64,000 nt of DNA from an uncultured virus (IMG/VR IMGVR_UViG_3300028603_000036) (IMGVR_UViG_3300028603_000036), one strand, 5' to 3'. Counted from the first letter of the stretch, positions 1 through 23,701 are shown. The notes: a model not told the origin generated them from the letters alone. Numbers and translations are program-made.

Positions 1-242
1 GCATGACGGCTAAGGCTGGCCTGAATGTTCCTGCTATCGCCAAGGCGTTGGGACTGTATCCGGCTGTGCCTGAAACGATGAAAAGTGAAAGCGCCTATAT
101 GCGCAACTATGGCGAGCGCGTCCCGTTTCGTGGCGGCAACTGGAGCTTCGGCGCGGTTGCCGGGGTGTTCGCCGTCAACTTGAACTACTCCCGTTCGAAC
201 GCGCTTTCGATCATCGGCGGTCGGCCCGCTTTTGTGATCTGA
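1..242 (+). CDS. DGR1 target protein, C-terminal fragment (CLec-fold; probable tail fibre/receptor-binding protein), truncated by window start
   Basis: Ends ...RGGNWSFGAVAGVFAVNLNYSRSNALSIIGGRPAFVI, a typical CLec VR end; contains VR1. The tail-fibre role is inferred from position. Confidence 0.9.
   Translation, partial: MTAKAGLNVPAIAKALGLYPAVPETMKSESAYMRNYGERVPFRGGNWSFGAVAGVFAVNLNYSRSNALSIIGGRPAFVI
114..230 (+). repeat. DGR1 variable repeat (VR1)
   Basis: 117-bp ungapped match to 1001-1117; 11 mismatches, all opposite TR adenines. Confidence 0.97.
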
Positions 243-264
243 AATCTGGCGCGTGGAATCTGAA

Positions 265-286
265 GGGGAGGGCGGTAGCCCGCCCC
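265..286 (+). promoter_or_regulatory. DGR1 post-VR hairpin with GGTA (GRNA) loop
   Basis: GGGGAGGGC-GGTA-GCCCGCCCC, 9-bp stem with one mismatch, just downstream of VR1. Confidence 0.75.
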
Positions 287-312
287 ATCACAACTTTCAG
301 GAGTCTTTTGAA

Positions 313-612
313 ATGAACATCACACGCTTGGAGCATTCTGTCATCACGCTTTTTGTTCAGGCGCTTTTCGGCTTGCTCTTCGACAACTGGGTGATCGGTG
401 CCGTGCTGGCCGTTTGCTTCTGGCTAGGCCGGGAGCATGCCCAGGCTGAATATCGCTGGATGCGCCTGTTCGGCAACGGCACCCGCGCCAGCATGCCGTG
501 GTACGGCGGTTTTGACCCCAAGGCATGGGATAAGGATGGGCTGTTTGATTGGCTGGTGCCGATTGTGGCGGCCATCGTTCTTTATGTGGTTGTGAAGGTA
601 ATCGGAGTCTGA
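313..612 (+). CDS. small membrane protein of phage tail regions
   Basis: RBS CAGGAG then ATG at 313; hydrophobic segments; REHAQAEYRW motif. Confidence 0.7.
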   Translation: MNITRLEHSVITLFVQALFGLLFDNWVIGAVLAVCFWLGREHAQAEYRWMRLFGNGTRASMPWYGGFDPKAWDKDGLFDWLVPIVAAIVLYVVVKVIGV

Positions 613-613
613 T

Positions 614-988
614 TTGTCGGAGCAAGTGCAGAAGAATGATTTGCTGATTCGTCAGAAGTGCGAAGCGATGATCGTGTACGGACAGACGGCGGTTCGGCAT
701 TTCCCAAAAATGGAACGGCACGTACTTGGTGCGGAGATTCGCAGAAGCATGTGGTCGCTGCTGCGGCTGATTGTGATCTGCAATAAGCGCTACCACAAGA
801 AAACGACCCTTCAGGATTTGGATGCAGAGCTGGACTTGCTTCGATCACAGATTCGGATTGCAAAGAGTCTTGGCTATCTGGATTTCAAGAAATATGAAAC
901 CTGGGCCAAATTGAATGACGAGATTGGCCGCATGGTAGGCGGCTGGGTCAAGTCCATTGCCGGTGACGGTAATGGGGGTGTCCGTTGA
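614..988 (+). CDS. avd: DGR accessory variability determinant Avd (copy 1)
   Basis: 124 aa; FPKMERHVLGAEIR, LQDLDAELDLLR, EIGRMVGGW motifs; directly upstream of TR1. Confidence 0.93.
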   Translation: MSEQVQKNDLLIRQKCEAMIVYGQTAVRHFPKMERHVLGAEIRRSMWSLLRLIVICNKRYHKKTTLQDLDAELDLLRSQIRIAKSLGYLDFKKYETWAKLNDEIGRMVGGWVKSIAGDGNGGVR

Positions 989-1000
989 AAACGACTGTCG

Positions 1001-1117
1001 GAGCGCGTCCCGTATCGTGGCGGCAACTGGAACAACGGCGCGAATGCCGGGGTGTTCGCCGTCAACTTGAACAACTCCCGTTCGAACGCGAATACGAACA
1101 TCGGCGGTCGGCCCGCT
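1001..1117 (+). repeat. DGR1 template repeat (TR1)
   Basis: Between avd and RT; 10 AAY codons in VR frame; differs from VR1 only at adenines. Confidence 0.97.
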
Positions 1118-1292
1118 CTTGGGGAAAGTCAGAAGCGCCAGGCTCACGGGCCTGACGACAGTACACCCCTCAAAAGGACGGACATCCCCCGGCATCAGGT
1201 TTCTGGAGCCGAAAGATTAAACAGGCGGCCCGAGACAGTAGCTTTGAAAGCGACCCCTCGCAGCCGCCGCCCTTCGGGGTTTGGTTGGTGCA

Positions 1293-2357
1293 ATGGCAAA
1301 GACGTATAACGGTATCTATCCAAATGTTTACAGTTTTGAAGCACTCCACGCGGCATACATCCGCGCCCGGCGCAACAAGCGCGACAGGCGGGAAGTGCAG
1401 CGGTTTGAGCAGGATCTAGAAGGCAATCTGATTCAGCTTCAAAATGAGCTGATCTGGGGCATGTACAAAACCGGGCGGTATCGCACCTTTGAGGTGTACG
1501 AGCCGAAGCAGCGAACGGTGGCCGCGCTTCCGTTCCGTGACCGGGTTGTTCAGCATGCGCTGGTGGCGGCCATCGAGCCGATATGGGAGCGGCGCTTTAT
1601 TCACGACAGCTATGCTTGTCGGCCAGGCCGGGGAACCCATAGGGGTGCTGATCGCGCCCAGGCGATGCTACGGAAGGTGAAGCGCCAGCATGGCCGTGTG
1701 TATGTCCTGAAAGCGGACATCGCCAAATATTTCTATTCCATCGACCATGGCGTACTGAAGGCGCTGCTTCGCAAGCGCATCCGATGCAAGCAGACGCTGG
1801 CCTTGCTCGACAGCATTATTGATTCCACTGCTGACCCAGGCGACCCGCATCCGGTTGGCTTGCCTATTGGAAACCTGACATCGCAGCTTTTCGCAAACCT
1901 TTACCTGCACGAGCTGGATGAGTTCGTAAAGCATGAGCTGCGGGAAAAGCACTACATCCGGTACATGGACGATTTCATGATTGCCAGCCACGACAAAGCG
2001 CACCTGCATGAAGTGCGCGCCATCATCGAGCGGTTCCTGTGGGAGCGGCTGCGGCTGAAAACCAACGCGAAAACGCAGGTGTTCCCTGTGGGTGAGCGCA
2101 ATGGCCGTGCGCTCGATTTCCTGGGCTACAGGATATGGACGACGCACCGGCGCATCAGGAAGAGTTCAATTTCCAGGATTTCGCGCACGCTCAAGCATCT
2201 GCGAAAGCGGTACGCCGCCGGGAAGGTGGAGCTGTCAAAAATCAAGGAATCCGTGATGTCGTGGATTGCCCATGCGAGCCACGCTGAAACCTTCGGCCTG
2301 CGGAACAAGCTGCTGGGCAGTATCCCGTTTTCCCGTGGGGAGGGGCCGGAGCCGTGA
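1293..2357 (+). CDS. DGR reverse transcriptase 1
   Basis: RDRVVQHAL, GLPIGNLTSQ, YIRYMDD; about 354 aa with no maturase or nuclease extension. Confidence 0.96.
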   Translation: MAKTYNGIYPNVYSFEALHAAYIRARRNKRDRREVQRFEQDLEGNLIQLQNELIWGMYKTGRYRTFEVYEPKQRTVAALPFRDRVVQHALVAAIEPIWERRFIHDSYACRPGRGTHRGADRAQAMLRKVKRQHGRVYVLKADIAKYFYSIDHGVLKALLRKRIRCKQTLALLDSIIDSTADPGDPHPVGLPIGNLTSQLFANLYLHELDEFVKHELREKHYIRYMDDFMIASHDKAHLHEVRAIIERFLWERLRLKTNAKTQVFPVGERNGRALDFLGYRIWTTHRRIRKSSISRISRTLKHLRKRYAAGKVELSKIKESVMSWIAHASHAETFGLRNKLLGSIPFSRGEGPEP

Positions 2358-2704
2358 GCAACGCCCACCTTGTCCTGATGACGAAGCTCGAAGAGCTGGA
2401 CGCATACACGCATACCGTTCTGCACCAGTTCCCCAGGATAGAGCGTCACCTGTTGAGCGCCGAAATGCGCGGCACGATGAACCGCGTCATGCGCCAGGTG
2501 GTGGTGGCTTGGAAACGCAAGCAAAAGTCCGGTGCGCTGTTTGACCTGGACGTGGAGATTGAGGTGTTTCGCGGTCTCATCAGAAAGGCTCACCGCCTGG
2601 GCTACATCAATACCCATCGGCTTGAGGTGTGGATGCGGCACACGAACGAGATAGGCCGGATGGTGGGCGCTTGGATTAAGAGCGAAGGGGGTAAGGCCAT
2701 GTAG
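2354..2704 (+). CDS. avd: DGR accessory variability determinant Avd (copy 2)
   Basis: FPRIERHLLSAEMR, LFDLDVEIE, EIGRMVGAW; GTGA overlap with the RT1 stop. Confidence 0.92.
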   Translation: MSNAHLVLMTKLEELDAYTHTVLHQFPRIERHLLSAEMRGTMNRVMRQVVVAWKRKQKSGALFDLDVEIEVFRGLIRKAHRLGYINTHRLEVWMRHTNEIGRMVGAWIKSEGGKAM

Positions 2705-2742: not shown

Positions 2743-2844
2743 CGGCGGCAATTGGGGCAACGGCGAGAACGCTGGCCTCTTCCATCTCAACGTCAACAAC
2801 GGCGCGGAGATCTCCAACTCCAATCTCGGGGGTCGTCTCGCAAA
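2743..2844 (+). repeat. DGR2 template repeat (TR2)
   Basis: 8 AAY codons; 102-bp match to reverse complement of 16822-16923, mismatches only at adenines. Confidence 0.97.
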
Positions 2845-3007: not shown

Positions 3008-4090
3008 ATGCCAAAGACCATCAGCGGACTGTGGCCGCAAGTCGTCGCGTTCGACAACCTGCATCAAGCATACCTTCTGGCCCGCCGCACGAAGCGGTAC
3101 AGGGCAGACGTACTGCAATTCTCTGAAAACCTCGAAGAAAACCTGTTCCATATTCAGGCCGCCCTGGAAGGCAGGATTTGGCGGCCAGGCCCGCAGCACG
3201 AATTTGTCGTGCGGGAGCCGAAGCTGCGCGCCATCCAAGCGCCGCCGTTCGCTGATCGCGTGGTGCATCACGCCCTGGTGGGCGTCGTCGGCCCGCATTT
3301 TGAGCGCCGGTTCATTTCCGATTCATACGCCTGCCGCCAGGGTAAGGGAACCCAGCGCGCGGTCGCGCGTGTGCAGCACTTCCTGCGGGCAGCCAAGCGC
3401 AACCATGGCGACGGGATCTACGTCATGCAGGCCGACATCAGCAGGTATTTCGCCAGCATCCGGCATGACGTGCTCATGCGTGAGGCCGCGCGCGTCATTT
3501 CCGACCCGGACGTGCTTTGGTTGTGGCGGCGCATTGTGGCGGGCTACGGCCACGAGAACGGCGTGGGCCTGCCGGTAGGCGCGCTGACCAGCCAGCTCGG
3601 TGCGAACATCGTTCTGAACAGGCTCGATCACGTCGCCAAAGATGATATGGGCCTGCGGCACTACGTCCGTTACATGGACGACTTTATTGCCGTTTTGCCT
3701 ACCAAGCATGCAGCCCAAGAGGTTATGCAGGTGATGGAGGCGGTGGTGGGCGATCTGGGCTTGCATCTGAATCCGAAGACGGCTGTTCATCCGTGGCAGC
3801 GTGGCGTGGACTTTTGCGGATACAGAATCTGGCCCACGCATATCCTGCCGCGCAAGAGAAATATCAAGCGGGCGCGCGCGGACTTCCGAGAGCTGGCAAG
3901 CCAGTTCTATCACGGAGAGGTTGGGCTGGAGCACGTTCGTCAGAGAGTGGCGTCGTTCTTGGCGTATGCGAAACACTGCAACGCGCAGCGCACAGTGGAG
4001 GGCGTTCTGGGCGACTTGGTGCTTGTGCCTGGCTTACGTGGTATTGTTGCCGCAAATGCAGGAAATAACAGGCAATTTGTATCAAGATAA
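3008..4090 (+). CDS. DGR reverse transcriptase 2
   Basis: ADRVVHHAL, GLPVGALTSQ, YVRYMDD; 360 aa. Confidence 0.96.
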   Translation: MPKTISGLWPQVVAFDNLHQAYLLARRTKRYRADVLQFSENLEENLFHIQAALEGRIWRPGPQHEFVVREPKLRAIQAPPFADRVVHHALVGVVGPHFERRFISDSYACRQGKGTQRAVARVQHFLRAAKRNHGDGIYVMQADISRYFASIRHDVLMREAARVISDPDVLWLWRRIVAGYGHENGVGLPVGALTSQLGANIVLNRLDHVAKDDMGLRHYVRYMDDFIAVLPTKHAAQEVMQVMEAVVGDLGLHLNPKTAVHPWQRGVDFCGYRIWPTHILPRKRNIKRARADFRELASQFYHGEVGLEHVRQRVASFLAYAKHCNAQRTVEGVLGDLVLVPGLRGIVAANAGNNRQFVSR

Positions 4091-4092: not shown

Positions 4093-4469
4093 TGATGGTA
4101 CGTGTGCTGGTACGAATCCCGCAGAGAGCGATAAAACCCTTATAAATCAAGCCACTACAAAGCAGGAAACAATAGAGTGGGAGTGATTTTATAACGCGCA
4201 ACGTCGCGCAACAACAAGCAAGAAACAAGCATAAAGCCCTGATTCGTCAGGGTTTTTTGCTTTATGGCCCGGCATCGTCTGGCAATGGCGGGCGGTAACA
4301 AGCAGTAGAAAATGATGGCATTTTTGATGGTACGGTTCATCCCCGTACCATCATTGAACGGCTCGTACCATCACGGCTTTTCAGGTTGGATGATGGTATC
4401 AAAATTCGATAAGCGTTTGATTATTAACGAGAAAACGGGCAAAAAATACCCTTTTTCAATGATGGTATC
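4093..4469. mobile_element. attP-like region: guaA 3'-end core flanked by arm-type repeats
   Basis: ACAATAGAGTGGGAGTGA (TIEWE*) at 4169-4186; eight TGATGGTA-like repeats at 4093, 4105, 4313, 4325, 4344(inv), 4364(inv), 4391, 4460. Confidence 0.85.
4234..4258 (+). terminator. intrinsic terminator after the att core
   Basis: AAGCCCTGA-TTCG-TCAGGG followed by a T run. Confidence 0.75.
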
Positions 4470-4487: not shown

Positions 4488-5735
4488 ATGCTTACTGACG
4501 CAAAGCTGCGGTCGCTGAAACCGCAAGAGAAGCCCTACAAGGTCGTTGATCGTGATGGGCTGTACATCATGGTGCTGTCGAGCGGCAGCATTTCGTTTCG
4601 CTACAACTACCGGATCAACGGGCGACAAGAAACGCTGGTGCTGGGCAAGTACGGGGCGGCTGGGGGATGTATCTCGCTGTCCGAGGCGCGAGAGCTGCTG
4701 ACGAAGGCAAAGAAGACCCTGGCGGCTGGAACGTCTCCTGCGAGACAGAAGGCCAGGGTGAAGCAGCGGATGGGGGAAATGGGGACGTTTGGCGCATGGG
4801 CCAAGAGGTGGCTCGAAGAGTACGCGATGGCCGAATCGACCAGGGATATGCGGCGCTCGGTGTATCTGCGTGAGCTGGAGCCGAAGTTCGGCAGGCTGAA
4901 AATGCCAGAAATCACGCCGGAGGATATTCGCATTCTTTGCGGTGAGATTGTTGATCGTGGCGCCCCGGCTACGGCGGTTCACGTCAGGGAGATTGTCATG
5001 CTGGTGTTCCGGTTCGCCATTGAGCGCGGCTACAGCGGCAAGAACCCGGCCACGGAAATCAGGCCGTCGTCCATTGCCACGTTCGCGCCGCGCAGCCGGT
5101 CGCTTTCGCCGGAAGAGGTGGGGATGATGTGCAGATACCTTGACCGCGTGGCCGCTGGGCCGCAGTTCAAGGTGGCGACAAGGCTGTTGCTGCTGACCAT
5201 GGTTCGCAAGAGCGAGCTGACCAAGGCCACCTGGTCGGAAATCAGCTTCACGAATGCGCTCTGGACGATACCGGGCGAGCGCATGAAACGACGCAACCCG
5301 CACGTCGTCTACCTGTCCAAGCAGGCGCTTGAATACTTCGTGGCGCTGAAGACCTTCGCGGGCGGCTCCGAATACGTGCTGCCGTCACGCTATGACACGG
5401 ATACGCCAATGAGCAGCGCAACGCTCAATCGGGTGCTGACGCAGGTCTACGAGCTGGCCCAGAAGGATGGGCAGCCGCTCGGGAAGTTTGGGCCGCACGA
5501 CTTGCGCCGCACGGCCAGCACCCTGCTGCATGAGGCCGGGTACAACACCGATTGGATAGAAAAGTGCCTGGCGCATGAGCAAAAGGGTGTCCGCGCCGTC
5601 TACAACAAGGCGGAGTACCGCGAGCAGCGCACGGCCATGTTGCAGGACTGGGCGGACATGATCGACCGATGGGAGGCTACGCCGGTTGATGAGACGGTTC
5701 AGCGTTCCTATGAAACGGCGCTGCTTGTTGAATAG
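4488..5735 (+). CDS. int: P4-family tyrosine integrase
   Basis: MLTDAKLRSLKP..DRDGLY arm-binding N-terminus; catalytic R (VRKSE), HDLRR, LAH, Y (RAVYN). Confidence 0.95.
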   Translation: MLTDAKLRSLKPQEKPYKVVDRDGLYIMVLSSGSISFRYNYRINGRQETLVLGKYGAAGGCISLSEARELLTKAKKTLAAGTSPARQKARVKQRMGEMGTFGAWAKRWLEEYAMAESTRDMRRSVYLRELEPKFGRLKMPEITPEDIRILCGEIVDRGAPATAVHVREIVMLVFRFAIERGYSGKNPATEIRPSSIATFAPRSRSLSPEEVGMMCRYLDRVAAGPQFKVATRLLLLTMVRKSELTKATWSEISFTNALWTIPGERMKRRNPHVVYLSKQALEYFVALKTFAGGSEYVLPSRYDTDTPMSSATLNRVLTQVYELAQKDGQPLGKFGPHDLRRTASTLLHEAGYNTDWIEKCLAHEQKGVRAVYNKAEYREQRTAMLQDWADMIDRWEATPVDETVQRSYETALLVE

Positions 5736-5955
5736 CGGCGGCGCGCCGCTCTTCTATCCACCTTTCCACCTCATGTAAATCCCACGCAACAAGGCGCGTG
5801 GTTATCGAAAAGCGGCGGGGAAACTCGCCGCGCTTTTCCATGTCGAGGATGGTGCGGTCGGATAGCGGCACCATTTCCAGAAGCTGTTTTCGGTTGATGA
5901 GTTTTGTGCCGGGCGCCTTAATGGCGGCGTCGGCGGTAGTTTCGCTTGTCGTCAT
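5677..5955 (-). CDS. alpA: AlpA-family regulator / excisionase
   Basis: KLINRKQLLEMVPLSDRTILDMEKRGEFPRRF..VAWDLHEVERW; converges on and overlaps the end of int. Confidence 0.88.
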   Translation of the reverse strand: MTTSETTADAAIKAPGTKLINRKQLLEMVPLSDRTILDMEKRGEFPRRFSITTRLVAWDLHEVERWIEERRAAAIQQAAPFHRNAEPSHQPA

Positions 5956-6034
5956 CTTCAAGTCCTTGTATATGCAAAAGCGCCAGCCTCTATGATTGCC
6001 GTTTGGCAAGGGCTGGCAGCATGGGAATTTCCGA

Positions 6035-13267: not shown

Positions 13268-15300
13268 TACGCCGCTACCTCTTCTGGGTGGTATTTCTTG
13301 AACGGCAGGCTTTGCAGGTGCTTGCCGAAGTAGGTGCCGACGGATTCGGCCCCGATGAAGTCGGCATGCGTCTGCGGGTCTACGTCCGGGTAGTGATAGA
13401 TCGCGCCGTTCCCGCGTGTGAACGTCACGGCCAGGGTGCGGGTGGCTTCGTCGTAGCCGATAGCCTTGATCTTGTTGGATTCCACCGGCTCCATGGGGAT
13501 GTGCTGGTAGGTTGCTGCGTCATCAAAAGCGGCTGCTGGGGTACGTGCCATGTCGTGGCTCCTTTCTTGGGGTTGGTTGATCTGCGCTGCATGGGCGCGC
13601 GCAGCAGACGTGAGGCGCGCGATCAGGGCTTGGCAGATTCGGGGGAAATCGCTCTCGTGATAGAGCTTTGCGGACTTCTCGGTGGCCGCATGCGCAAAGC
13701 CAATGTTCGCCAGCCCGTCAGCGGTCAGCGTGATGGGCGACAGGCGTTCATTGATCTGGCCCAGGCGGAGCGTGGGCGCGGAGTCAGCGGCCTCCGGTGT
13801 TGGCTGCTCATCCAGCAGGCCGCTGAAGGTGCTGGTGCCAACAAAGGCGGGCGACTGGCTCGCTAGGCTGGCCGGGCCGTTGTTTTCAATGACTGTGGCG
13901 GCGGGCGATTCGATAGCTGTATTGGCCTTTGCTTCTGCCGGGAGCTGCTGCGCCTCTTGCTCAAGCTCCTTGCGGATTTGTTCACGCTGCTCTTCAAGTC
14001 GGTCGGCTTCGGCCTTTTCGTGCGCCTCGATGCGGGTGGTGATCGTCAGGGCGAAGTCTTCCAGCGGCTTGGCGATGAGCTGCTGCAAGTCGGCCAGCAG
14101 GGCGCGGTGCTGCGATGCGTTCTCTTCCACCCAGAGCAGCTTTTCATGGACTTCGGCGGCGATCTTGTCGGCGTCGATTTTGCCGTTTGCCAGGGCGGTG
14201 TCGAGCTTGTCCTGCATGCTCGTGAACGTGCGCAGCCCTTTGATGGCGGCGGCGAAGTCGGGCGCCCTAACGTCGATGCGGACGCCCTGGATGCCTTTTT
14301 GCAGGTCGGCAACGTAGCTGGTGAATGCCTGCGCTGCGTTGCGCACAATCTCTTCGCGCCTGCGCTTTTTCTCGGCCTCCAGCAAGCGTTCAGCGATCAG
14401 GCGGTTGTCGCGCACCAGCTTCGCCAGCATGTTTTTATGCCGCTTGGCCTCGTCCACGCTCTGGATCTGCGCCAGCATCATGTCTTCGGCGGCGTCGAGC
14501 TTTTCCTCGGCCTCCTTCATGGCCTTGATCTGCCGGTCGAGGTCAACGAAATCCTGGTCGCTCTCCGGCTTGCGAATCAGCTTGTTGTCCAGGAAGTCTT
14601 GCAACGCTTGCTCGAAGACTTTGAAGTTGTCGATCACGTCGATCTGGCCGGACACACGTACCGAAACTGCGGGCAGAGACTGCACCGGCTCGGCCACCAG
14701 CACCGGCACGACCTCGGGCAGCTCGTAGCCTGCCAGGTCGCGGTCAAACTGCGCCCAGCCCGCCTTGATTCGTTCTTGCCAGTCGGGGTCTGGGAAGACC
14801 TCCATCCACTCCATCTTGTCGGGAGTGCCGTCCGACACAACGAAGATCACCCGGCGCGCGCCGGTGATGAGCAGGATTTGCTGGCACTGCGGCATGTGCT
14901 CTTCGGGCAGGACGCCTGTGGCCACCGATTCGGCCAGCGCGGCGTTCCATTGTTTGTGCTCAAAGGCGGTGTCGCCGTCCAGGGTCAGACCGTCGCATGA
15001 CGCGGACAGGTGGCCGCCTTCGTCTTCATTCGAGCACGTTACCGGGTACAAGTCGTCACCGGCGATTTCTTCCGCAAGCGGGCGGGCCTTGGCTTCGACC
15101 TTGTGGCCGTAGTCCAGGATGTGCTCCTGCACCCAGTCCGAAAACTCCTTGGGGGTGCCGGTGTGCTTCATGCGCAGCAGCTCGGAGCGGGTCGTTTTTT
15201 TCGACAGGCCCAGCATGGCGGCGGCTTCGCTGGCGCCGTGGTGTTCCAGCCGGAATGCCTGCCACTCCGGGCTACCCTGGACAAGATTGTGGATCTTCAT
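13267..15300 (-). CDS. YqaJ/lambda-type exonuclease with coiled-coil region and C-terminal KTSC domain
   Basis: QGSPEWQAFR, ASEAAAMLG, SASCDG, FEHK; C-terminus PVESNKIKAIGYD..IYHYPDV..AESVGTYF. Confidence 0.88.
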   Translation of the reverse strand: MKIHNLVQGSPEWQAFRLEHHGASEAAAMLGLSKKTTRSELLRMKHTGTPKEFSDWVQEHILDYGHKVEAKARPLAEEIAGDDLYPVTCSNEDEGGHLSASCDGLTLDGDTAFEHKQWNAALAESVATGVLPEEHMPQCQQILLITGARRVIFVVSDGTPDKMEWMEVFPDPDWQERIKAGWAQFDRDLAGYELPEVVPVLVAEPVQSLPAVSVRVSGQIDVIDNFKVFEQALQDFLDNKLIRKPESDQDFVDLDRQIKAMKEAEEKLDAAEDMMLAQIQSVDEAKRHKNMLAKLVRDNRLIAERLLEAEKKRRREEIVRNAAQAFTSYVADLQKGIQGVRIDVRAPDFAAAIKGLRTFTSMQDKLDTALANGKIDADKIAAEVHEKLLWVEENASQHRALLADLQQLIAKPLEDFALTITTRIEAHEKAEADRLEEQREQIRKELEQEAQQLPAEAKANTAIESPAATVIENNGPASLASQSPAFVGTSTFSGLLDEQPTPEAADSAPTLRLGQINERLSPITLTADGLANIGFAHAATEKSAKLYHESDFPRICQALIARLTSAARAHAAQINQPQERSHDMARTPAAAFDDAATYQHIPMEPVESNKIKAIGYDEATRTLAVTFTRGNGAIYHYPDVDPQTHADFIGAESVGTYFGKHLQSLPFKKYHPEEVAA

Positions 15301-15306
15301 TTGGTG

Positions 15307-16005
15307 TTACTCCGTTTTTGCCCAGGACGCGATTTCGGCTTTTTGCTCGTCGGTCAGCAGGGTTTTGGTTTCGATCATGGCGATCATGTCGGCCACCGGC
15401 TTTCCAGCCGTGACCAGCCGCTTCCAGCCTTCGGTTTTCTGCGCGAAGGTGTCGGGGGTGCATTCAGGGAGTCCGCCTGGCTCCGTGCGGGTGGCGGGTT
15501 TGTTGGAGCGGGCCGCGTCGTTCGATTTGCCCTTGGTTGGCGCATCCTGAACAGGCGCGCCGTCCTCGTCCAAGTCGTCGTCGGACGTGAGACCCAGGAT
15601 TGCGCCGTAGGCATAGCGCCGTAGGTATGTCACGACGGCGCCGAACGCCTTGGGGTCGTGGAAGTCGTTCGCAACTTTCAGGCGTGACGTGACTGTTCCG
15701 CCGTCTTTGTGTCCGAGAATCGTCTCGATGACGGCCTCTGGAACCCGGCCCTCAAGGTCGTTGATGGGTTGGATGACGAACAGCCCGTTGTCCGCCAGCG
15801 GCTGCTTGACCGATTCACGCATGACAGACAGGTCGGCGTAGCGGAATGAGTACGGCGCGCTGTCACGCGGCCTGATTTGAACCAGACGGTTCTTCTTGAT
15901 TTCGGGGAAAGCGCCCTGGGCCACGGCCAGCGCGGCAAACAGGGCATTCCTGCCGGGGTGATCTGCAATCGTGGTGCGATTTTCAATGATCGGGATGGTG
16001 CTCAT
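15307..16005 (-). CDS. ERF-family ssDNA annealing protein
   Basis: FRYADLS..PLADNGL, FGAVVTYLRRY..DDDLD. Confidence 0.9.
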   Translation of the reverse strand: MSTIPIIENRTTIADHPGRNALFAALAVAQGAFPEIKKNRLVQIRPRDSAPYSFRYADLSVMRESVKQPLADNGLFVIQPINDLEGRVPEAVIETILGHKDGGTVTSRLKVANDFHDPKAFGAVVTYLRRYAYGAILGLTSDDDLDEDGAPVQDAPTKGKSNDAARSNKPATRTEPGGLPECTPDTFAQKTEGWKRLVTAGKPVADMIAMIETKTLLTDEQKAEIASWAKTE

Positions 16006-16015
16006 GGTTGATTCC

Positions 16016-16411
16016 TCATGCATCGCAGCTTGAGCAGCGCCGACTGCTGCAACCTGCGCAGGGGTGGTTCTCTGCCTCTTTGTTGATCTGCCGTTCCGCT
16101 TCGCTGCGGGCGGCGGCTTCCCAGTAATCGCGCGTCAGCTTTTCCAGCGCCTGGCCCGCTGCTGCCGTGTCACCCTCGCGCAGCAAGTCGGCCAGGCGCG
16201 TCACCGCCTGGTCGTCGGCTTCGCACAGGGCTTCGCATAGGTTCTGCGGGTCGAATGGCGTAAAGCCGGGCGTCTCCATCAGCTCGGCGGCGCGGTCGCC
16301 AATGGCGGAGTCGCTGGGGCCGTCATCGTCGGCCCTGGGGTCGTTGGGGTGGCCGCTGTATGGCGGCCATGTTGCTTAGTCGCCGAAGCCGGGCATGGAT
16401 GTCAGGTTCAT
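16016..16411 (-). pseudogene. small phage gene interrupted by in-frame TAA at codon 12 (or shorter gene 16016-16279)
   Basis: MNLTSMPGFGD*ATWPPYSGHPNDPR... continues in frame into ORF 16016-16279. Confidence 0.55.
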
Positions 16412-16511
16412 AGCGTCACCTTTGCCAAGCCCCAGGAACGGCGGCGGCCATAGCCGCACCGGCGGTAGTGCCGGTAGTCGGCAAAGAGCTTCAGCGTCTT
16501 GCGGATTCTCT

Positions 16512-16712
16512 TCATCGCGCGGCCCTCACGCTGACTTTGCAGAACCCGAACCGCTCAAAAGCGTCAATCGCCGCGCCGCAGGTGCTGCGGTGCAGGGCGG
16601 TGTAGCTATGGCGGTCGCCGGATGCCGTGGTTACGTTCACCTGGCAGGGGATAAGCCGGGTGGCAGGACGCGCGGCAGGGGATGCCGCACTTTTCAATGT
16701 CGTGGCGCCCAT
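16512..16712 (-). CDS. hypothetical small protein
   Basis: RBS AAGGAG; 66 aa. Confidence 0.65.
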   Translation of the reverse strand: MGATTLKSAASPAARPATRLIPCQVNVTTASGDRHSYTALHRSTCGAAIDAFERFGFCKVSVRAAR

Positions 16713-16730
16713 ATCGCGCTCCTTTGTCTG

Positions 16731-16760
16731 AAAAAAGAAAACGCCCCTGGCGGGGCGTTT
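16731..16760 (-). terminator. intrinsic terminator downstream of the DGR2 target
   Basis: AAACGCCCC-GCCA-GGGGCGTTT then TCTTTTTT on the minus strand. Confidence 0.8.
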
Positions 16761-16766
16761 GGGTGC

Positions 16767-16783
16767 GGCCCGCTCGGCGGGCC
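16767..16783 (-). promoter_or_regulatory. DGR2 post-VR hairpin
   Basis: GGCCCGC-CGA-GCGGGCC, perfect 7-bp stem about 40 bp after VR2. Confidence 0.6.
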
Positions 16784-16814
16784 TTCCCGGTCATGACACA
16801 AGTCTCAAAAGGCA

Positions 16815-17780
16815 CTACACCTTTGCGAGACGACCCCCGAGAAGGGAGTAGGAGATCTCCGCGCCGTCGTAGACGTTGAGATGGAAGAGGCCAGCGTCCT
16901 CGCCGCCGCCCCAATTGCCGCCGTGGTAGGCAACGGCGTTGCGGCAGGCCCAAAAGTAGTCACCGAACGCGCTCTTGTCGCGGTCGTCATACGTCTTCTT
17001 GGGTAGGAACATCGCGCCAAGGTCGAAACCTTCACCGCTTCTGTTCGAGCGGCGGCGGAACCATCCGCTGTCGGGAGCCTGAACGCCGGTGTTGCGATAC
17101 TCGCGGCTGCCGCCTTCATCCCAGACCAGGTAGCGGCCTTCGTTGTCAGTGCGCAGGCCGTCCACCATCTGCCAGACGTTGCCCCACAGGCCGCTGATGC
17201 CGCGCCACGACGCGCTCATTACGCGGGGGTCGTCCACCGGCTGTACGCCGCCGCCGTCAACATGACCACGGGCGATAGCGGTCTGGGCATCCGGGGTGCC
17301 TAGCTCGATAAGTGCCAGCATCTGCACCGCCGCAAGCTGGTGGGCGCTCCACAGCATCCAGCCGTCGCCGCGCGCTGCGGCGCGGGCCTGCATGGTCGGG
17401 AAGTCGATATTGGTCAGCGGCATATGTCCGGGCTGGCTGCCCAGCATGTCGCCGTCCGGGGTGCCTTGGTACGCGCCCAACCAGAACCGGCCAAGGTCTT
17501 CGCCCTGGTGGCGGAACGCCGGGTGCAGCTTGAAGCCGTCTTCCGGGCCGGGGCTGCACCAGATTGCCTTCTTACCGGCGTTGTCGCCGTGCTTGATGGT
17601 CGTGGAGCGGTAGTAGTAGGCGGGGATCTCGATCATGTGCTGATCGTCAAAGAGTGCGGGCTTGATGCCTGCATAGAGCGCGTCGAATGCGCCCGGCTCG
17701 ACTTCGACGCTGTTGCCGTCGGCGTCAACGCGCTGCCAGTCGGTCAGTTTCTTGCCGACGATGATTCCTTGAATGCTCAT
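16815..17780 (-). CDS. DGR2 target protein (CLec-fold), remote from its cassette
   Basis: WRGISGLWGNVWQMVDG; ends YHGGNWGGGEDAGLFHLNVYDGAEISYSLLGGRLAKV; carries VR2. Confidence 0.93.
   Translation of the reverse strand: MSIQGIIVGKKLTDWQRVDADGNSVEVEPGAFDALYAGIKPALFDDQHMIEIPAYYYRSTTIKHGDNAGKKAIWCSPGPEDGFKLHPAFRHQGEDLGRFWLGAYQGTPDGDMLGSQPGHMPLTNIDFPTMQARAAARGDGWMLWSAHQLAAVQMLALIELGTPDAQTAIARGHVDGGGVQPVDDPRVMSASWRGISGLWGNVWQMVDGLRTDNEGRYLVWDEGGSREYRNTGVQAPDSGWFRRRSNRSGEGFDLGAMFLPKKTYDDRDKSAFGDYFWACRNAVAYHGGNWGGGEDAGLFHLNVYDGAEISYSLLGGRLAKV
16822..16923 (-). repeat. DGR2 variable repeat (VR2)
   Basis: Matches TR2; 8 substitutions, all at TR adenines. Confidence 0.97.
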
Positions 17781-17804
17781 GGGTGGATTCCTTGATAGGG
17801 AGGG

Positions 17805-18278
17805 TTACTGCTGGGGTTTGAGGCGGCTTGCTTCGAGAATCGGCAAACCGGCTTCGGTCGGAACGTAGATCACCTGGGCGCCCTGCGCGCGGGCTTCTTT
17901 CAGGCTTTCGATATGCAGGTAGCGCAGGTAGCCTTCAGGGCCGCCCAGGCCGTCGGCCACGATGCGGTTTGCTTCGGCCACGCCAAGCGCGCGGGTGATT
18001 TCGGCGTCGGCCAGCGCCTGGGCCGAATCCTTGATTGCCGCCGCTTCGAGCACCTTGATCTGTCGGTTGAACTCGGCCTCGGCCAGTTGGGCCTTGCCGG
18101 ACATCGAGCGCTGCCAGACGTTGGCGTAGGGGTAGGCCAGTAGCCCGGCTATGGCGATGATGACGCCGACGGCGATGGTGACAAGCCCTGGCGTTGAGCT
18201 GCGCAGCGAGTCGGCCAGGACGTAGCCGACAAAGCCGACGATGAGGCCAATGATGAGAATGACGATGGTGATAAGCAT
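17805..18278 (-). CDS. membrane protein, SPFH/band-7-like coiled-coil tail
   Basis: Two TM segments; AEITRALGVAEANRI..YLRYL..IYVPTEAGLPILEA. Confidence 0.7.
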   Translation of the reverse strand: MLITIVILIIGLIVGFVGYVLADSLRSSTPGLVTIAVGVIIAIAGLLAYPYANVWQRSMSGKAQLAEAEFNRQIKVLEAAAIKDSAQALADAEITRALGVAEANRIVADGLGGPEGYLRYLHIESLKEARAQGAQVIYVPTEAGLPILEASRLKPQQ

Positions 18279-18313
18279 GGGGTGGTGGTTCCTGTGGTGG
18301 GGTGGTTGGTAAT

Positions 18314-18577
18314 TCAGTCGAGTCCGGTTTCTCGGGGTGCGGTGCGGACGAGCCGCGCGGCTTCCTCAAAAGCCTGGGCCAGCCTCTCTCTGCGCTTTGC
18401 CGATTTAGGAAGCCAAAACGTGACGGCACTGCGGTCGTCGTCTTCTGGCGGGTGGTGCAGGCGTTCGCTGCTGTGCAGGATGAACTGGACGGCGCTGTAC
18501 ACCGCGCCGGTGTTGCTGCCTTTCTCGACGGGCAGAACTTCGTCGGTCAGCTCTTGGCTGTAAACATTCACTCGCAT
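18314..18577 (-). CDS. hypothetical phage protein
   Basis: 87-aa ORF in operon. Confidence 0.7.
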   Translation of the reverse strand: MRVNVYSQELTDEVLPVEKGSNTGAVYSAVQFILHSSERLHHPPEDDDRSAVTFWLPKSAKRRERLAQAFEEAARLVRTAPRETGLD

Positions 18578-18963
18578 ATCGGGGTCTCTGTCGGCGTTTT
18601 ATCCGGGATGGTTGGGGTGATTCGGGCTATCCGTTTTCGGATTTCTTGCTCGATGACGGTGTAGGCGCGCGCCTGGCCGGTGTGCTCAAGATTCCAGTTC
18701 CGGGCGTGGATGTCGTCGTCATCGGTTTCTCGGTTGGCAAGCGCGCCCAGGTAGTGTTCGGACGCGAACGCCAAGAGTGATTCGAGTGCGGCCAGCGTCT
18801 GCGCATTGGCGTAGGCTTTCGCACTGGCTGCGGTCACAAGGTCGTGCCGCTCTGTGCCTGCGGACAAGTCCATATCGCCGCGCATGCTCAAGCTCACGCC
18901 GCGATGGTCGCCGTTCACATACAGATAGGCTTCGACCTCGGGCTGGGCTTGCTTGGATGTCAT
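18568..18963 (-). CDS. hypothetical protein
   Basis: RBS AAGGAG; overlaps neighbours. Confidence 0.65.
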   Translation of the reverse strand: MTSKQAQPEVEAYLYVNGDHRGVSLSMRGDMDLSAGTERHDLVTAASAKAYANAQTLAALESLLAFASEHYLGALANRETDDDDIHARNWNLEHTGQARAYTVIEQEIRKRIARITPTIPDKTPTETPICE

Positions 18964-19481
18964 GCCGTGCTCCTTTCTCGCGCTATGGGGATGCCCTTGT
19001 CGTTTTTGTCGGCCAGGATGACCAGGCCACCAACTACGGCCAGGACGGATGCGCCGTCGTGCTCCTGCATGTAGGCGTTGGCTGCGCGCTCGCCCTCGGG
19101 GTCGTCCGGGAACGTCGCCAGGACGCGGAAGCGCCTGCCCATGGTCAGGTAGAAGCCGTGGCCGTCGCGCGCCGCTACCGCGTTGTTCGCAATGTCCAGG
19201 TCGGACGGCCCGTAGTCGTCCATGACCGTTCGCGCTCGTTCGTCGGGTATCTCCGTTTGCACACGCTCGGCGGGAATCCGTTCGACGGCAAGGCGCGGGA
19301 TGTTGTGCGCGATGCGCAGGCCGCTGCCGTCCAGCTCAACGAAGTGCTCGGAGTCGTCAAAATGGATGGTCAGCATCCCGCAGTCATCACCAACGATGTC
19401 GCCGGTGGCGCCTTCCTGGGCCTTCAGTCGGCCATCGGCGAAATGCGTGTTGCGGAGCAGTCGTGCTCGTTCGAATGCCAT
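18960..19481 (-). CDS. hypothetical protein
   Basis: RBS AAGGA; 173 aa. Confidence 0.65.
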   Translation of the reverse strand: MAFERARLLRNTHFADGRLKAQEGATGDIVGDDCGMLTIHFDDSEHFVELDGSGLRIAHNIPRLAVERIPAERVQTEIPDERARTVMDDYGPSDLDIANNAVAARDGHGFYLTMGRRFRVLATFPDDPEGERAANAYMQEHDGASVLAVVGGLVILADKNDKGIPIARERSTA

Positions 19482-19501
19482 ATTGGGTTCCTTTTGGTGG
19501 G

Positions 19502-19852
19502 TTACTTCGGCGGCAGGCCGTTCAGGGCGGCCTGGAGCGCGTCCTTGATTTGCTGCAAGTCCTGCCGGGTGAACTCCGGTACGTCGTCATCGTCGTCGTA
19601 GTGGGTGCGGTGTTCCGGCAGGTCGTCTGCGTTGATTTGGTCGGCCAGGCGCAGCGCGTCGTTGATGAGGCTGCGGTGGACGACGCACATTTGCACCCGG
19701 TAAAGCTCGCGTACGCACTGGTCGTAGATGGCTGGCGTCCAGCCCTCCGGTTCGAGTTTCCCGTATACCTCCAGCATGGTTTCCAGCGCTTTAGCGTTTC
19801 GCTGGTTGGCGGATAGTGCGTATTCGAGCTGGTGTTTTAAGCCTGCGGTCAT
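19502..19852 (-). CDS. hypothetical protein, first clear gene of the PL operon
   Basis: RBS AGGAGG; 116 aa. Confidence 0.65.
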   Translation of the reverse strand: MTAGLKHQLEYALSANQRNAKALETMLEVYGKLEPEGWTPAIYDQCVRELYRVQMCVVHRSLINDALRLADQINADDLPEHRTHYDDDDDVPEFTRQDLQQIKDALQAALNGLPPK

Positions 19853-20117
19853 AAAAGCCTCCTGTTATCGGGAACTGGCCTGCATGCAAGCCGGTTTCGG
19901 ATAAGGCCCGTTGCCGGGCCTGGGTGGGGTGCCGGGATTCCAACCGGCGTAACCGTTTCTCGTCTTGGCCGTCTTCGCCTCACTCTGTTTGCCCGTGTAC
20001 GCGCTTTGGCGGCTGGGTACGGCAGAGACACCGCGCGCCGACCGGCCCATGCCCAGGGCGGCGCTATTTGTGCCGGGGAACCCTCGCGTCGGGGAGGGAG
20101 CAACATCGGCGGATTCG

Positions 20118-20154
20118 TTGTTAAAGAGCGGGTGCGTTGCCGGGCGTTGCCCGG
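20118..20154 (-). promoter_or_regulatory. boxA antitermination site preceded by a small hairpin
   Basis: CCGGGC-AAC-GCCCGG then CGCTCTTTAACAA on the minus strand just after PL. Confidence 0.75.
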
Positions 20155-20167
20155 TGCTGCGATAGTC

Positions 20168-20209
20168 GTAACTATAGTTACCGTAGGAAGAGTTGTCAAC
20201 TATGGTTAC
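20168..20209 (-). promoter_or_regulatory. PL promoter with two overlapping operators
   Basis: TTGACA-17 bp-TATAGT (20199 to 20171); operators GTAACTATAGTTAC 20168-20181 and TCAACTATGGTTAC 20196-20209. Confidence 0.88.
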
Positions 20210-20218
20210 CTGAAGGCG

Positions 20219-20246
20219 AAAAAAAACCCGCCGGAAAGGGCGGGCT
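20219..20246 (-). terminator. intrinsic terminator
   Basis: GCCCGCC-CTTTCC-GGCGGGT followed by a T run on the minus strand. Confidence 0.8.
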
Positions 20247-20310
20247 TGTTCGAAGCGAAAGGGCGGCGGGGACTACATCACAGTCGTCTATCGTCTATGT
20301 GGGGGCATTG

Positions 20311-21066
20311 TCACCATACCTTGAAGTAAACGGCCTCAAAGACGGGGGCAGATTTTTCTTGCCCTGATACTGTCGTGTACTTCGTGTTTGAGACATATCG
20401 TCCAACCAAGTCGAATCCGCCCTCAATCTTTGCTTTATCGAAGTAGTAGTTTTGCAATTGATCCGGGATTACAACGGCAAAATAGTCTGTGCTTTCACCG
20501 AGTCCGCGCGATCTCCGTAGTGCGTTGGCGAGCAATTCATTGTCTTTGGACGATGATAAGGCAGCAAGAAACTCTGGCGATTCCCCTGCCATCTTGATCT
20601 TTCCGTGAACGTAATACATACCCCCATCTGGCTTTATTTTGGGGGCGCTTGCAAGCTGGCCACCATGTTCGGCTTCGTAGTAAATGACGGCCTCTCCCAA
20701 ATTCTCCGGCACGGAGGTTCTGGCACGCATTGCGGCTTCCCGAATTGCCAGTGCGGAGGCTTGGGCTTTTTCTCTGGCTTTCTTTTGTTCTTGCTCGACC
20801 TGGCGGGCTTCCCGCTCGGCTTTTACCTCATCGAAGAGCCTTCGTAGCCCAGCCGACTCTTCACACCCTTCGCCGCACCAGTTTGATGCTCGCAGAGCTT
20901 GGCAGAACGCTTCGACCGTAGGGATCTGCTCGTAGTCGAGCATCCTCAAGTCATCTCTGGCTATGCTGTTGTTCCATCCGCGATGGCACTGCTGCGCCAT
21001 AACATTCAATGGAGAAAGAAAGACGATTGAGCAGGCGGCGACGGCGACATAGAAAATACGTTTCAT
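20311..21066 (-). CDS. exported hypothetical protein downstream of the repressor (moron-like)
   Basis: Signal-peptide-like N-terminus MKRIFYVAVAACSIVFLSPLNVMA; visibly more AT-rich. Confidence 0.75.
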   Translation of the reverse strand: MKRIFYVAVAACSIVFLSPLNVMAQQCHRGWNNSIARDDLRMLDYEQIPTVEAFCQALRASNWCGEGCEESAGLRRLFDEVKAEREARQVEQEQKKAREKAQASALAIREAAMRARTSVPENLGEAVIYYEAEHGGQLASAPKIKPDGGMYYVHGKIKMAGESPEFLAALSSSKDNELLANALRRSRGLGESTDYFAVVIPDQLQNYYFDKAKIEGGFDLVGRYVSNTKYTTVSGQEKSAPVFEAVYFKVW

Positions 21067-21169
21067 TTTGGTGATTTATTTTCTTTCAAGAGAATTGAAA
21101 TGTTACTTGGATGGCAAAATTTTTTGACCATTTGACCATACCAGCGAAAGCCGAGGGCGCTCTTTTGGC

Positions 21170-21601
21170 TTAGGCAACATTTGTCTTTTTTCTCTCCCGC
21201 AGGAGCTGCGCAGCCCTTTCTTCGAGGATTTCGATAGAAAGGAGCGCTTGCTTTTCTAGCTCATCTCGTTCCTCTTTGGGCAGCAGCACAAGATCAACGA
21301 CGGCGCGGGTTGCTTCGCTGGCGTCGCTGTATGCTTTCCACGCGGACTCCATGGCGACAGCCTTGGCGGCTTCGCGCTCGACACCAGGCTTGGCTGCGCC
21401 AACACCGCGCACAAGCTCTTCAACTGACACGCCGAATAGGTCGCACAGACTTAAGAGGTTGCCCAGCTTGAGGTTAGCCGTCATGCCGCTTTCCCATTTT
21501 GTGACGGCGACACGGCTTACCCCTACCTTGTCGGCAACGGCCTGTTGAGACATCCCTCTGGACTCTCGTAATCGTTGTATTCGTTTATCTAGCGACTCCA
21601 T
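21170..21601 (-). CDS. CI-like XRE HTH repressor
   Basis: RIQRLRESRGMSQQAVADKVGVSRVAVTKWESG; divergent from cro; no peptidase domain seen. Confidence 0.88.
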   Translation of the reverse strand: MESLDKRIQRLRESRGMSQQAVADKVGVSRVAVTKWESGMTANLKLGNLLSLCDLFGVSVEELVRGVGAAKPGVEREAAKAVAMESAWKAYSDASEATRAVVDLVLLPKEERDELEKQALLSIEILEERAAQLLRERKKTNVA

Positions 21602-21666
21602 GTAAGCATGGTTACATGGAACGCTGAAACTATGGTTTGCTTTCTCATGGTAACTATAGTTACAAT
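21602..21666. promoter_or_regulatory. OR: three operators at 24-bp spacing plus PR
   Basis: GTAAGCATGGTTAC 21602, GAAACTATGGTTTG 21626, GTAACTATAGTTAC 21650; TTGCTT-18-TACAAT. Confidence 0.85.
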
Positions 21667-21673
21667 GGCAGGC

Positions 21674-21904
21674 ATGAAAAACGAAGCCCACTCCCGTCTG
21701 ATTGATGAGCTTGGCGGAACCGTCGAGGTTTCCCGTCTCTGCCAAGTTTCGTCTCAAGCTGTCTCCAAGTGGCGCAACGAAGGCATCCCGCAAGCACGTC
21801 TTATGTACCTGCGACTGGCGAAACGGGAAGTTTTCGAGGCGTGGGAGGCGAAGCAAATCGCGGCCCAAGAGGTCGGTAAACATAAAGGAGTCTCCCATGA
21901 GTGA
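21674..21904 (+). CDS. Cro-like regulator
   Basis: LIDELGGTVEVSRLCQVSSQAVSKWRNEGIP. Confidence 0.85.
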   Translation: MKNEAHSRLIDELGGTVEVSRLCQVSSQAVSKWRNEGIPQARLMYLRLAKREVFEAWEAKQIAAQEVGKHKGVSHE

Positions 21905-22146
21905 GAACGAATCGCCAACGAGCAAGCGGCCACAAGTTGCGCCGCAATCGGCGGCGCCGCTGGCTCCCGCTAAACCGTCGCCCAAGGGCGACGACCATCC
22001 TACCGAGTCCGCTCAAGACGCAAAACGGGTACAGATCGGCCCGACCGATGTGTAGAGAGTTGTCATTTTTTTCACCATTTTTTCCATGCCACCAGTATCT
22101 AACCCCAGCCAGGGGAGCGATAGGCGAAAGTTAAGGGTCGTTCGTC

Positions 22147-22835: not shown

Positions 22836-23701
22836 CGCATGATGAATTGGCACTCGACTTGGCGCGCCACCTGCGCGAGAGAACCGGACGCATTGTCTGG
22901 ACTGACATGCAGCTTGGCCCCGTCGGCTCGCCGCGCCCTGACGCCTACAGCATCGAGCCGTCCTACACGAAGTTTCGGCCCATTGCCTACGAAGTCAAGG
23001 TGTCGCAGGCCGACTACCGGCGCGACATTACCGCTGGCAAATGGCAAACCTACCTGCCGTTCGCTGCGGGCGTCGTATTCGCGGCCCCGTCTGGGCTGAT
23101 AGAGCGCTCATCGTTGCCAGAAGGCTGCGGTCTGATTGCGCGCAATGCAGATGGCTGGCGGACGGTGAAGGCACCCACGCTGCGGGCCATTGAAACGCTG
23201 CCCCATAGTGCGTGGGTCAAGCTGTTTATTGACGGCATGGGCCGTGAAGCTGACCGGCTAATCCGCGAAAGCCGCCCCGGCCTGTCAGACGAATGGATGG
23301 CGCGGCGCACCGTAGGGGAGAAGCTGGGCAGAGAAGTTTCCCAGATCCTGGTGGAAAGGGGGTATGCGGAAAGCCGGTACGCGCTGGAGACAAAGCGCCT
23401 GCGCGATGCCGCCGACGGCATGACCGAAGAAATCCGGGAGCATGAGCGGCGTATCAGGGAGCGGGTGGAGCGCGATGCGGCTGCCATCGACCAGGTACGC
23501 GCAACACTGGCCCAGGCGCTGGGGCTTCCCGCCAATTCCTCTGTGCGAAGCATTCAGGCTGCGGCTGAAAGCCAGTCCTACCGTCTGTCGAAAGACGGGG
23601 AAATCCAAGAACTGCGACACGCCCTGTCAATGGCCCAGCGGGCGCTGACTGGCGGGCTGTCCGTGCCTGCCCTTGCGACCAATGGAGGGCAGACGGCGTG
23701 A
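22832..23701 (+). CDS. PD-(D/E)xK-like (MmcB-like) protein
   Basis: RPDAY..AYEVKVSQADYRRD. Confidence 0.65.
   Translation: MTHDELALDLARHLRERTGRIVWTDMQLGPVGSPRPDAYSIEPSYTKFRPIAYEVKVSQADYRRDITAGKWQTYLPFAAGVVFAAPSGLIERSSLPEGCGLIARNADGWRTVKAPTLRAIETLPHSAWVKLFIDGMGREADRLIRESRPGLSDEWMARRTVGEKLGREVSQILVERGYAESRYALETKRLRDAADGMTEEIREHERRIRERVERDAAAIDQVRATLAQALGLPANSSVRSIQAAAESQSYRLSKDGEIQELRHALSMAQRALTGGLSVPALATNGGQTA

Follow-up and report, generated by a model that had tools for sequence, protein, structure and literature searches.

In phages, diversity-generating retroelements (DGRs) are seen as a means of switching tropism by changing tail proteins. We examined a 64,000-nucleotide stretch from an uncultured virus (IMG/VR IMGVR_UViG_3300028603_000036), hereafter the window, which makes up the initial 64 kb of a 72,616-bp contig, and describe a 321-aa gene in it (TARGET2; 16815..17780, minus strand) that is the remote target of the second of two DGRs in this phage, DGR2. 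The DGR of Bordetella phage BPP-1 (mtd-avd-TR-brt) joins an Avd protein with a template repeat (TR) and with a reverse transcriptase (RT), and rewrites, specifically at adenines, the variable repeat (VR) at the 3′ end of a gene with a C-type-lectin (CLec) fold; a GC hairpin follows the VR, and the cassette can act on its target in trans, whichever way the target is oriented (PMC5758913; PMC3240598). DGR2 resembles BPP-1 in these respects and differs from it in layout: the BPP-1 target is adjacent and forms a tail-fibre tip, whereas DGR2 has no adjacent target and its target lies 14 kb off, on the other strand, across attP and in a predicted early leftward unit. The variable protein TaqVP (PDB 5VF4), from the DGR of a Thermus aquaticus prophage, is a monomeric single-domain CLec protein of the formylglycine-generating enzyme (FGE) type and is encoded, as in BPP-1, next to its own avd-TR-RT (PMC6328139); TARGET2 is likewise a single FGE-type CLec domain of similar size, but only 18-20% identical to it.

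One TR can serve targets that are not adjacent to it, as with the non-adjacent and multiple targets of Treponema and Legionella and the prophage cases of Wu et al. 2018 (PMC5758913). In the survey of Wu et al., many phage-associated DGRs have a target that lies non-adjacent but within 50 kb, and two have only a non-adjacent one, about 20 kb away; its available text gives neither the identity nor the location of the non-adjacent phage targets, and in its supplement text (one file) five genus or species names that we sought had no occurrences. Other papers treat phage DGR targets as receptor-binding or as 'structural versus unknown' (PMC10743442, PMC8144416), and beyond Wu et al. our full-text literature searches turned up no description of a phage DGR target that is encoded in an early operon, lacks an anchor or is non-structural. 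DGRs whose target is not adjacent are already known; what sets this case apart is the identity of the target, its placement and the DGR dedicated to it. Unlike in the surveyed cases, we can say what the target is: an anchor-less paralog of a fibre tip that lies in the early/accessory region and belongs to a lineage of its own.

We compared the template with its target. TR2 (2743..2844, plus strand) and VR2 (16822..16923, minus strand) form an inverted repeat pair of 102 nt, 92% complementary, with 13,977 nt between the arms, and VR2 covers the last 35 codons of the open reading frame (ORF). The eight mismatches all fall at template adenines; TR2 has 23 adenines in its 102 nt, and the chance of eight out of eight is (23/102)^8, about 7e-6. 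Six of the eight AAY codons of TR2 are changed in VR2 and, read in frame, the changes are AAC>GGC, AAC>GAC (twice), AAC>TAC (twice) and AAT>CTT. Both the match of TR2 to the 3′ end of a remote gene, 14 kb off on the opposite strand, and this exact set of codon changes had been stated in the initial annotation of the window, and both stood. When TR2 was searched by BLAST against the whole 3.65-Mb assembly, only TR2 and VR2 matched. The 321-aa gene is a genuine remote target of DGR2 and its only one.

Sequencing runs were examined as contigs, and the parts that these leave uncovered carry no meaning. Contigs of a near-identical phage were present in a second environmental sample, where six of the eight pieces listed were free of differences; the contigs are broken within VR2 and one adenine position is changed, which gives weak support. 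An apparent VR2 variant at 16868 in the likely source run was rejected, as it came from the TR2 contig aligned to VR2 and is not a real variant.

The genes of DGR2 are intact. Avd2 (2354..2704, plus strand; PF22296 bAvd, 6.8e-24, above the 40-bit cut-off; phrog_3206, 1.3e-30) starts with a 4-nt overlap of the RT1 stop, TR2 follows it, and RT2 (3008..4090, plus strand) is a DGR reverse transcriptase by its matches to RVT_1 (1.4e-21) and phrog_1423 (5.8e-119). YMDD and LPxGxLTSQ are marks of DGR RTs, and the RT2 translation contains YMDD and LPVGALTSQ; RT1 also keeps YMDD. DGR2 is a complete second DGR (Avd2-TR2-RT2).

Elements expected in cis were found at the target. A segment holding the end of the repeat homology, the stop codon and a conserved spacer (GCAAAGGTGTAG ... 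TGTGTCATG; 16784..16821, minus strand) is conserved in 16 aligned copies of the gene, both free copies and those that end tail fibres (see below). It resembles the initiation of mutagenic homing (IMH) element, and by analogy with BPP-1 we assign it that probable role and these probable boundaries (PMC3240598). The GC-rich hairpin GGCCCGC-CGA-GCGGGCC (16767..16783, minus strand) is unique in the window and stands 38 nt after the last VR base, compared with a place within 24 bp immediately downstream in BPP-1. Across the 16 sequences 92% of hairpin cells are paired, against 18-51% in slid controls, with compensatory changes in three of seven pairs; the DNA fold has z = -3.87. The repeat end GCAAAGGTGTA, the TGTGTCATG box and the hairpin are common to free and fibre copies. 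TARGET2 carries the full cis set for mutagenic retrohoming, namely VR, IMH-like end and GC hairpin. In BPP-1 the hairpin and IMH are required, and they suffice to target a foreign gene; the target works there in either orientation (PMC3240598).

DGR2 directly follows DGR1, and the two stand in tandem at the end of the late operon. DGR1 (1..2357, plus strand) comprises the end of a tail target with VR1 (114-234), an accessory gene (253-612), Avd1 (614-988), TR1 (1001-1121) and RT1 (1281-2357). TR1 and VR1 differ mostly at adenines (11 of 12 mismatches), and the target, TARGET1, is a separate 370-aa tail-side protein that adjoins the cassette. RT1 and RT2 are about 43% identical. Given that the similarity of TR1 to TR2 is only about 72% and that their repeats end differently, the two systems are probably orthogonal. 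The same tandem layout recurs in a prophage of Pigmentiphaga humi, and two RTs are also present in proviruses G003 and G005. The final 156 nt of the contig repeat its initial 156 nt at 97.4% identity, with four mismatches (window 1-156 vs G000:C3:72459-72614), so we take the phage genome to be circular or circularly assembled, at about 72.5 kb. All four of these mismatches fall on TR1-adenine positions of VR1. The assembly broke within a polymorphic VR1; since the four mismatches sit at such positions, VR1 is polymorphic in the sample, and we read DGR1 as active.

We compared the window with the P. humi prophage. The attP core GAGTGGGAGTGA (4175..4186), common to both ends of this integrated relative (G001), lies between RT2 and the tyrosine integrase gene int (4488..5735, plus strand; Phage_integrase, 7.9e-23; phrog_1, 6.6e-80). 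Window positions 4169-6000 and 1-4191 map to opposite ends of an insert of about 70.5 kb, and the shared core places the junction at about 4180 in the window; the suggestion that template and target lie across the att site from each other is borne out by this homology. In the circular form 14 kb separate TR2 from VR2; in the integrated relative, which shares with the window the layout in which DGR2 has only its remote target, they are about 56 kb apart. In the flanks the window and the prophage are 98% identical. Their target genes differ at 17 of 102 VR positions and at 42 of 857 positions elsewhere in the gene. Eleven of the 17 VR differences are at adenine positions, and the six others all track each phage's own TR. 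Because the VR differs more than the rest of the gene, mostly at adenines, and the non-adenine differences follow the phage's own TR, retrohoming appears to have continued within the remote-only layout.

We next asked what kind of protein is diversified. TARGET2 has no match in Pfam. It matches phrog_5302 ('tail protein'; PHROGs) at 6e-35, its residues 40-319 aligning with profile positions 230-541 of 548. The AlphaFold (AF2) model is one compact domain with a predicted local distance difference test score (pLDDT) of 95.8 and a predicted template modelling score (pTM) of 0.94. A profile built from 53 relatives matched one solved protein, TaqVP (5VF4; E 6.3e-18), over three stretches that include the VR, and Foldseek ranked the same protein first for the model (2.8e-16), ahead of PvdO, Mtd, TvpA and formylglycine-generating enzymes; TaqVP is the best PDB match both in sequence and in fold. 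Among predicted viral structures (BFVD) the top matches were 'tail collar fiber' proteins of 418-1486 aa in which the distal part spans the entire query (TMq up to 0.84). The ESM Atlas returned unnamed clusters only, a minority of them with FGE-sulfatase. The model thus confidently predicts a single-domain FGE-type CLec fold, as had been anticipated from sequence. It also agrees with the reported lack of a signal peptide, as the model makes the N terminus one of the strands that build the domain (block pLDDT 90).

The relatives of TARGET2 fall into two kinds. A protein database yielded 108 relatives at E<=1e-5, among them 55 protein clusters of 315-331 aa that are 49-90% identical. IMG/VR yielded 54 loci: 11 of a closer kind (56-66% identity), which we call free copies, 27 of a more distant kind (37-50%), and 16 that were too short or had no neighbour matches. 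At the 27 distant loci Avd2- and RT2-like genes lie within about 2 kb downstream, and in 20 of the 26 non-free rows the match is the C terminus of a tail fibre of 839-867 aa. The N-terminal 72 residues of the fibre match the window's own 305-aa fibre protein, and a DUF4376 chaperone-like gene stands downstream of the fibre paralog. When we aligned a tail paralog (L025) with a free copy (L009), residues 525-855 of the former paired with residues 3-327 of the latter at 51% identity. The fibre targets of about 855 aa (L025, L020, L034) share with the free copies the last ~330 residues, at 41-51% identity, and the same VR class, IMH-like end and hairpin; they differ in having an N-terminal baseplate-side segment and repeat domains, and in being followed by the DUF4376 chaperone-like gene and then Avd-TR-RT. 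TARGET2 is equivalent only to the distal binding module, of about 330 residues, of such a fibre, with no fibre shaft. The remark that it has no tail-attachment region is true relative to these paralogs, whose residues 1-524 it lacks. It is located outside the tail module, and no DUF4376-type chaperone gene adjoins it.

Free copies form a lineage of their own. In a tree, a branch with support 93/98 separates nine free copies from 24 fibre copies; the free side also takes in three other short proteins on a long branch, and the branch for a strict single clade reaches only 50/49. Because free and fibre copies of one phage fall in different clades, the split points to an old duplication and not to a fresh copy in each phage. 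Outside the VR, the ratio of nonsynonymous to synonymous substitution rates (dN/dS) lies in the range 0.12-0.63 for every one of the 28 pairs that eight free copies form, and the scaffold is thus under purifying selection. VR dN is high among free copies, for example 0.30 vs 0.04 for L004/L007. The initial annotation had named absence of VR2 polymorphism among homologs as evidence that would tell against it; the homologs vary, as these VR dN values and the 17 differences in 102 nt from the P. humi prophage show. Relative to the fibre module, free copies are about twice as rich in charged residues and half as rich in Ser/Thr. Immediately ahead of the VR, all eight that were aligned share an invariant RR, which is part of the consensus GWFRRR.

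Templating of free copies could be checked in 12 phages by comparing the VR with the phage's own TR, and it is adenine-biased in ten, with adenine shares of the mismatches of 8/8, 15/15, 13/13, 9/9, 9/9, 7/7, 11/13, 14/17, 6/7 and 20/24. In at least six phages the same TR serves a free and a fibre copy. The form of about 855 aa has been lost from the window's phage, where DGR1 with its unrelated target stands in its place. The lineage of the window has swapped the fibre end for DGR1, leaving DGR2 with the remote target only.

Early or recombination homologs lie beside the free copy, in the same direction, at ten of the 11 viral loci and at nine of the 12 genome loci, two sets that share some records. 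The exact place varies, from before Erf/RecE in some phages to after SSB in others. No neighbour was constant among the loci compared, so that free copies have no conserved partner gene there; the 157-aa gene upstream of TARGET2 is common only to L003 and the P. humi prophage. An early-operon position, as first claimed for this gene, therefore holds in the window and at most loci and is not universal, an exception being locus L058, described below.

We then turned to expression signals around TARGET2. A PL-like promoter (TTGACA-17-TATAGT; 20168..20199, minus strand, site 20199-20171) carries a 14-bp palindromic operator, GTAACTATAGTTAC, over its -10 element, and a terminator-like site (20247-20224, minus strand) precedes it. 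The palindrome has two exact copies in the window, with zero expected, and each overlaps the -10 of a leftward promoter-like site; the second site (21650..21680, minus strand; palindrome 21650-21663) lies upstream of the gene for a helix-turn-helix (HTH) repressor. Five genes of 157, 87, 131, 173 and 116 aa (17805..19852, minus strand) lie upstream of TARGET2 in its unit. They are ORFs with coding GC content at third codon positions (GC3); phrog_11227 and phrog_20753 are their only family matches, and PADLOC found none. TARGET2, with a Shine-Dalgarno sequence of its own (AAGGA, 8 nt before the ATG), is the sixth and last gene between promoter and terminator. No minus-strand terminator was predicted between 20171 and 16760, and the unit closes with an intrinsic-terminator-like site (16739..16760, minus strand; 9-bp stem and T run) directly after the target's hairpin. 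A similar site follows the gene in L003, and similar stems occur in the flanks of L004, L007 and L008. L003 shows the same unit of terminator, promoter, genes, target and terminator; L004 does not. A de novo search for shared words in eight late intergenic regions returned GC-rich noise only and no late-promoter motif even in those regions. These consensus scans and the exactly repeated operator uphold the earlier placement of the gene downstream of an operator-bearing PL-like promoter, among recombination and accessory genes and not tail genes, and we infer that TARGET2 is made from an early transcript.

We propose the following sequence of events. On infection or induction the unit would fire from its repressor-controlled PL-like promoter, and TARGET2 would be made at once. 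TR2 RNA, Avd2 and RT2, encoded at the end of the late operon, would rewrite VR2 in trans across attP. The product would remain outside the tail and would bind its ligand as a free, variable protein, either within the infected cell or once lysis has released it, and the phage would keep a private DGR to retune its specificity. That TARGET2 is a free variable binder, made early and not built into the tail, is a statement for which we see roughly even chances.

An anti-defence or host-takeover role, as the initial annotation suggested, is hypothetical. PADLOC, run on TARGET2 and 14 neighbours, matched only a DpdH-like stretch (10734-11261), and no described anti-defence or defence family matched the target or its five upstream neighbours in PADLOC or Pfam. 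CLec-type variable domains have been proposed to act intracellularly in conflict systems, as putative sensors of multicellular bacteria (PMC10907252); these are cellular multi-domain proteins, whereas TARGET2 is a phage-encoded single domain whose link to conflict is hypothetical. A bolder version would make the DGR an offensive antibody-like system in temperate phages of Burkholderiales and Pseudomonas, with an immediate-early free lectin-fold binder that is continually re-randomised so as to capture an intracellular host factor that itself varies (such as a sensor or effector of defence) and, in this lineage, a whole DGR kept for it beside the tropism DGR. We consider this version unlikely.

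Several observations weigh against an early free binder. Promoter, operator and terminator are consensus matches, and RNA-library contigs of a related prophage, which span parts of TARGET2 and of neighbouring genes, may derive from DNA and say nothing about timing. We saw no within-sample VR2 polymorphism in the contigs. No family match in Pfam or PADLOC points to an intracellular role. In a close relative, L058 (77% identity), the free copy follows the RT by 430 nt and is on the strand of the late genes. In the provirus of Comamonas nitrativorans (L004/G003) the VR of the free copy is out of step with the TR of the RT2-like DGR, with only nine of 20 mismatches at adenines, as if related phages had recently swapped a module. 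For G005 the stretches examined yielded no template, and the RT2-like gene has an in-frame TGA. Lastly, a DGR protein that is small and stands alone can belong to the virion: Mtd, at the fibre tips, is such a separate protein (PMC5758913), and this phage's own TARGET1 is a separate protein too.

This last point leads to the strongest alternative, in which TARGET2 is a virion adhesin supplied in trans, a second, alternative tip for receptor binding that attaches to the tail or fibre by non-covalent docking and is diversified independently of TARGET1 to widen host range, its early location being incidental. The homology of TARGET2 to the distal binding module of tail fibres speaks for it, as do the mostly receptor-binding nature of phage DGR targets (PMC10743442; PMC8144416), the small separate proteins of the Mtd type (PMC5758913) and of TARGET1, also separate at 370 aa, and the L058 gene that follows its DGR on the late strand. 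However, at most loci the gene is away from all tail genes, it has no adjoining DUF4376-type chaperone, unlike the tail paralog, its composition is shifted from that of the fibre module, and it has no known docking partner. We hold an adhesin to be possible but less probable than the free binder.

Two further accounts fit the data less well. TARGET2 could be a moron-like gene that serves the lysogen or the cell surface, for example in exclusion or receptor masking, from its own signals and not from PL. As a single-gene module with its own Shine-Dalgarno sequence and terminator, and with neighbours that vary among phages, it has the look of one; but there is no signal peptide or membrane segment, and the N terminus is part of the fold. 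Directly upstream there is no strong promoter, only a 9-of-12 match inside the 157-aa gene (g157), after which TARGET2 follows by 24 nt in the same direction. We judge this improbable. Least probable of all is a functionless duplicate of a fibre tip that is re-templated only because VR, IMH-like end and hairpin persist: transplanted IMH and hairpin suffice to make any gene a target (PMC3240598) and two relatives are out of step or had no template found, but every free copy read has an unbroken frame, dN/dS outside the VR stays within the range given above in all 28 pairs, the copies form an old separate clade, the 55 protein clusters of 315-331 aa are 49-90% identical, class-specific residues are invariant, and a whole DGR is retained for this target alone in the window and the P. 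humi prophage.

TARGET2 represents a recurrent, selectively maintained second target that shed its fibre, moved to the early/accessory region and in some phages became the sole owner of a DGR. Should the protein prove not to be part of the virion, programmed hypermutation would also serve a job in the infected cell or lysate, and TARGET2 would belong to a new class of variable phage effector. The locus also offers a natural case of two probably orthogonal DGRs side by side in one 72-kb genome and of apparently efficient trans-targeting over 14-56 kb, properties useful for DGR-based directed evolution. A cultured lysogen (the Pigmentiphaga humi record) carries a 93%-identical gene, and the question can be tested there directly.

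The phage that carries TARGET2 is a temperate P1/lambda hybrid. Its late genes are P1-like, with a tail sheath, a PmgG-like protein and Hdf-, DarB- and Ulx-like anti-restriction proteins, and its immunity and early regions are lambda-like (Pfam and PHROGs profile searches). On the plus strand the att region and then the integrase follow DGR2. The leftward operon on the minus strand holds genes for a C5 methylase, SSB, DUF5131, RdgC, a RecE-like exonuclease and Erf, then TARGET2 and its five small genes; beyond this unit come the promoter, a 251-aa gene and the HTH repressor. Searched by megablast against a phage collection, window positions 14000-22000 had no match, and scans of the window with Rfam gathering thresholds and for tRNAs each returned zero.

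Around the early unit we made some minor observations. The 271-aa repressor ORF (21170-21985) was probably called too long, as the HTH starts at residue 134, and the promoter-like site with the shared operator (21680-21650) sits inside it. The 251-aa gene (20311-21066), of unknown family and without a PADLOC or Pfam match, lies between the repressor and PL and is followed by a terminator; homologs stand at the same place in L003, L004, L006 and L007, and the position is that of rex in lambda. Past the target's terminator, about 460 nt (16280-16738) hold no convincing gene, only one 133-aa plus-strand ORF without coding GC3, and no Rfam match. Further along the leftward operon, the DUF5131 protein (9805-10737) adjoins a 175-aa protein with the DpdH-like stretch (PADLOC PDLC02890, 1.8e-8).

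Elsewhere in the window, a P1-like Dar block (47626-60120) comprises an Hdf-like protein (47626-48114), a 1626-aa protein (48351-53231), a 2150-aa DarB-like methylase/helicase (53244-59696) and a Ulx-like protein (59707-60120). Three more DNA methyltransferases are encoded at 6035-8035, 23698-24204 and 24201-25427. An apparent gene gap at L090 1296-4382 (contig 63296-66382) is not a true one: it holds a 1028-aa ORF, probably the tape measure, that had been missed by GC3-based gene picking.

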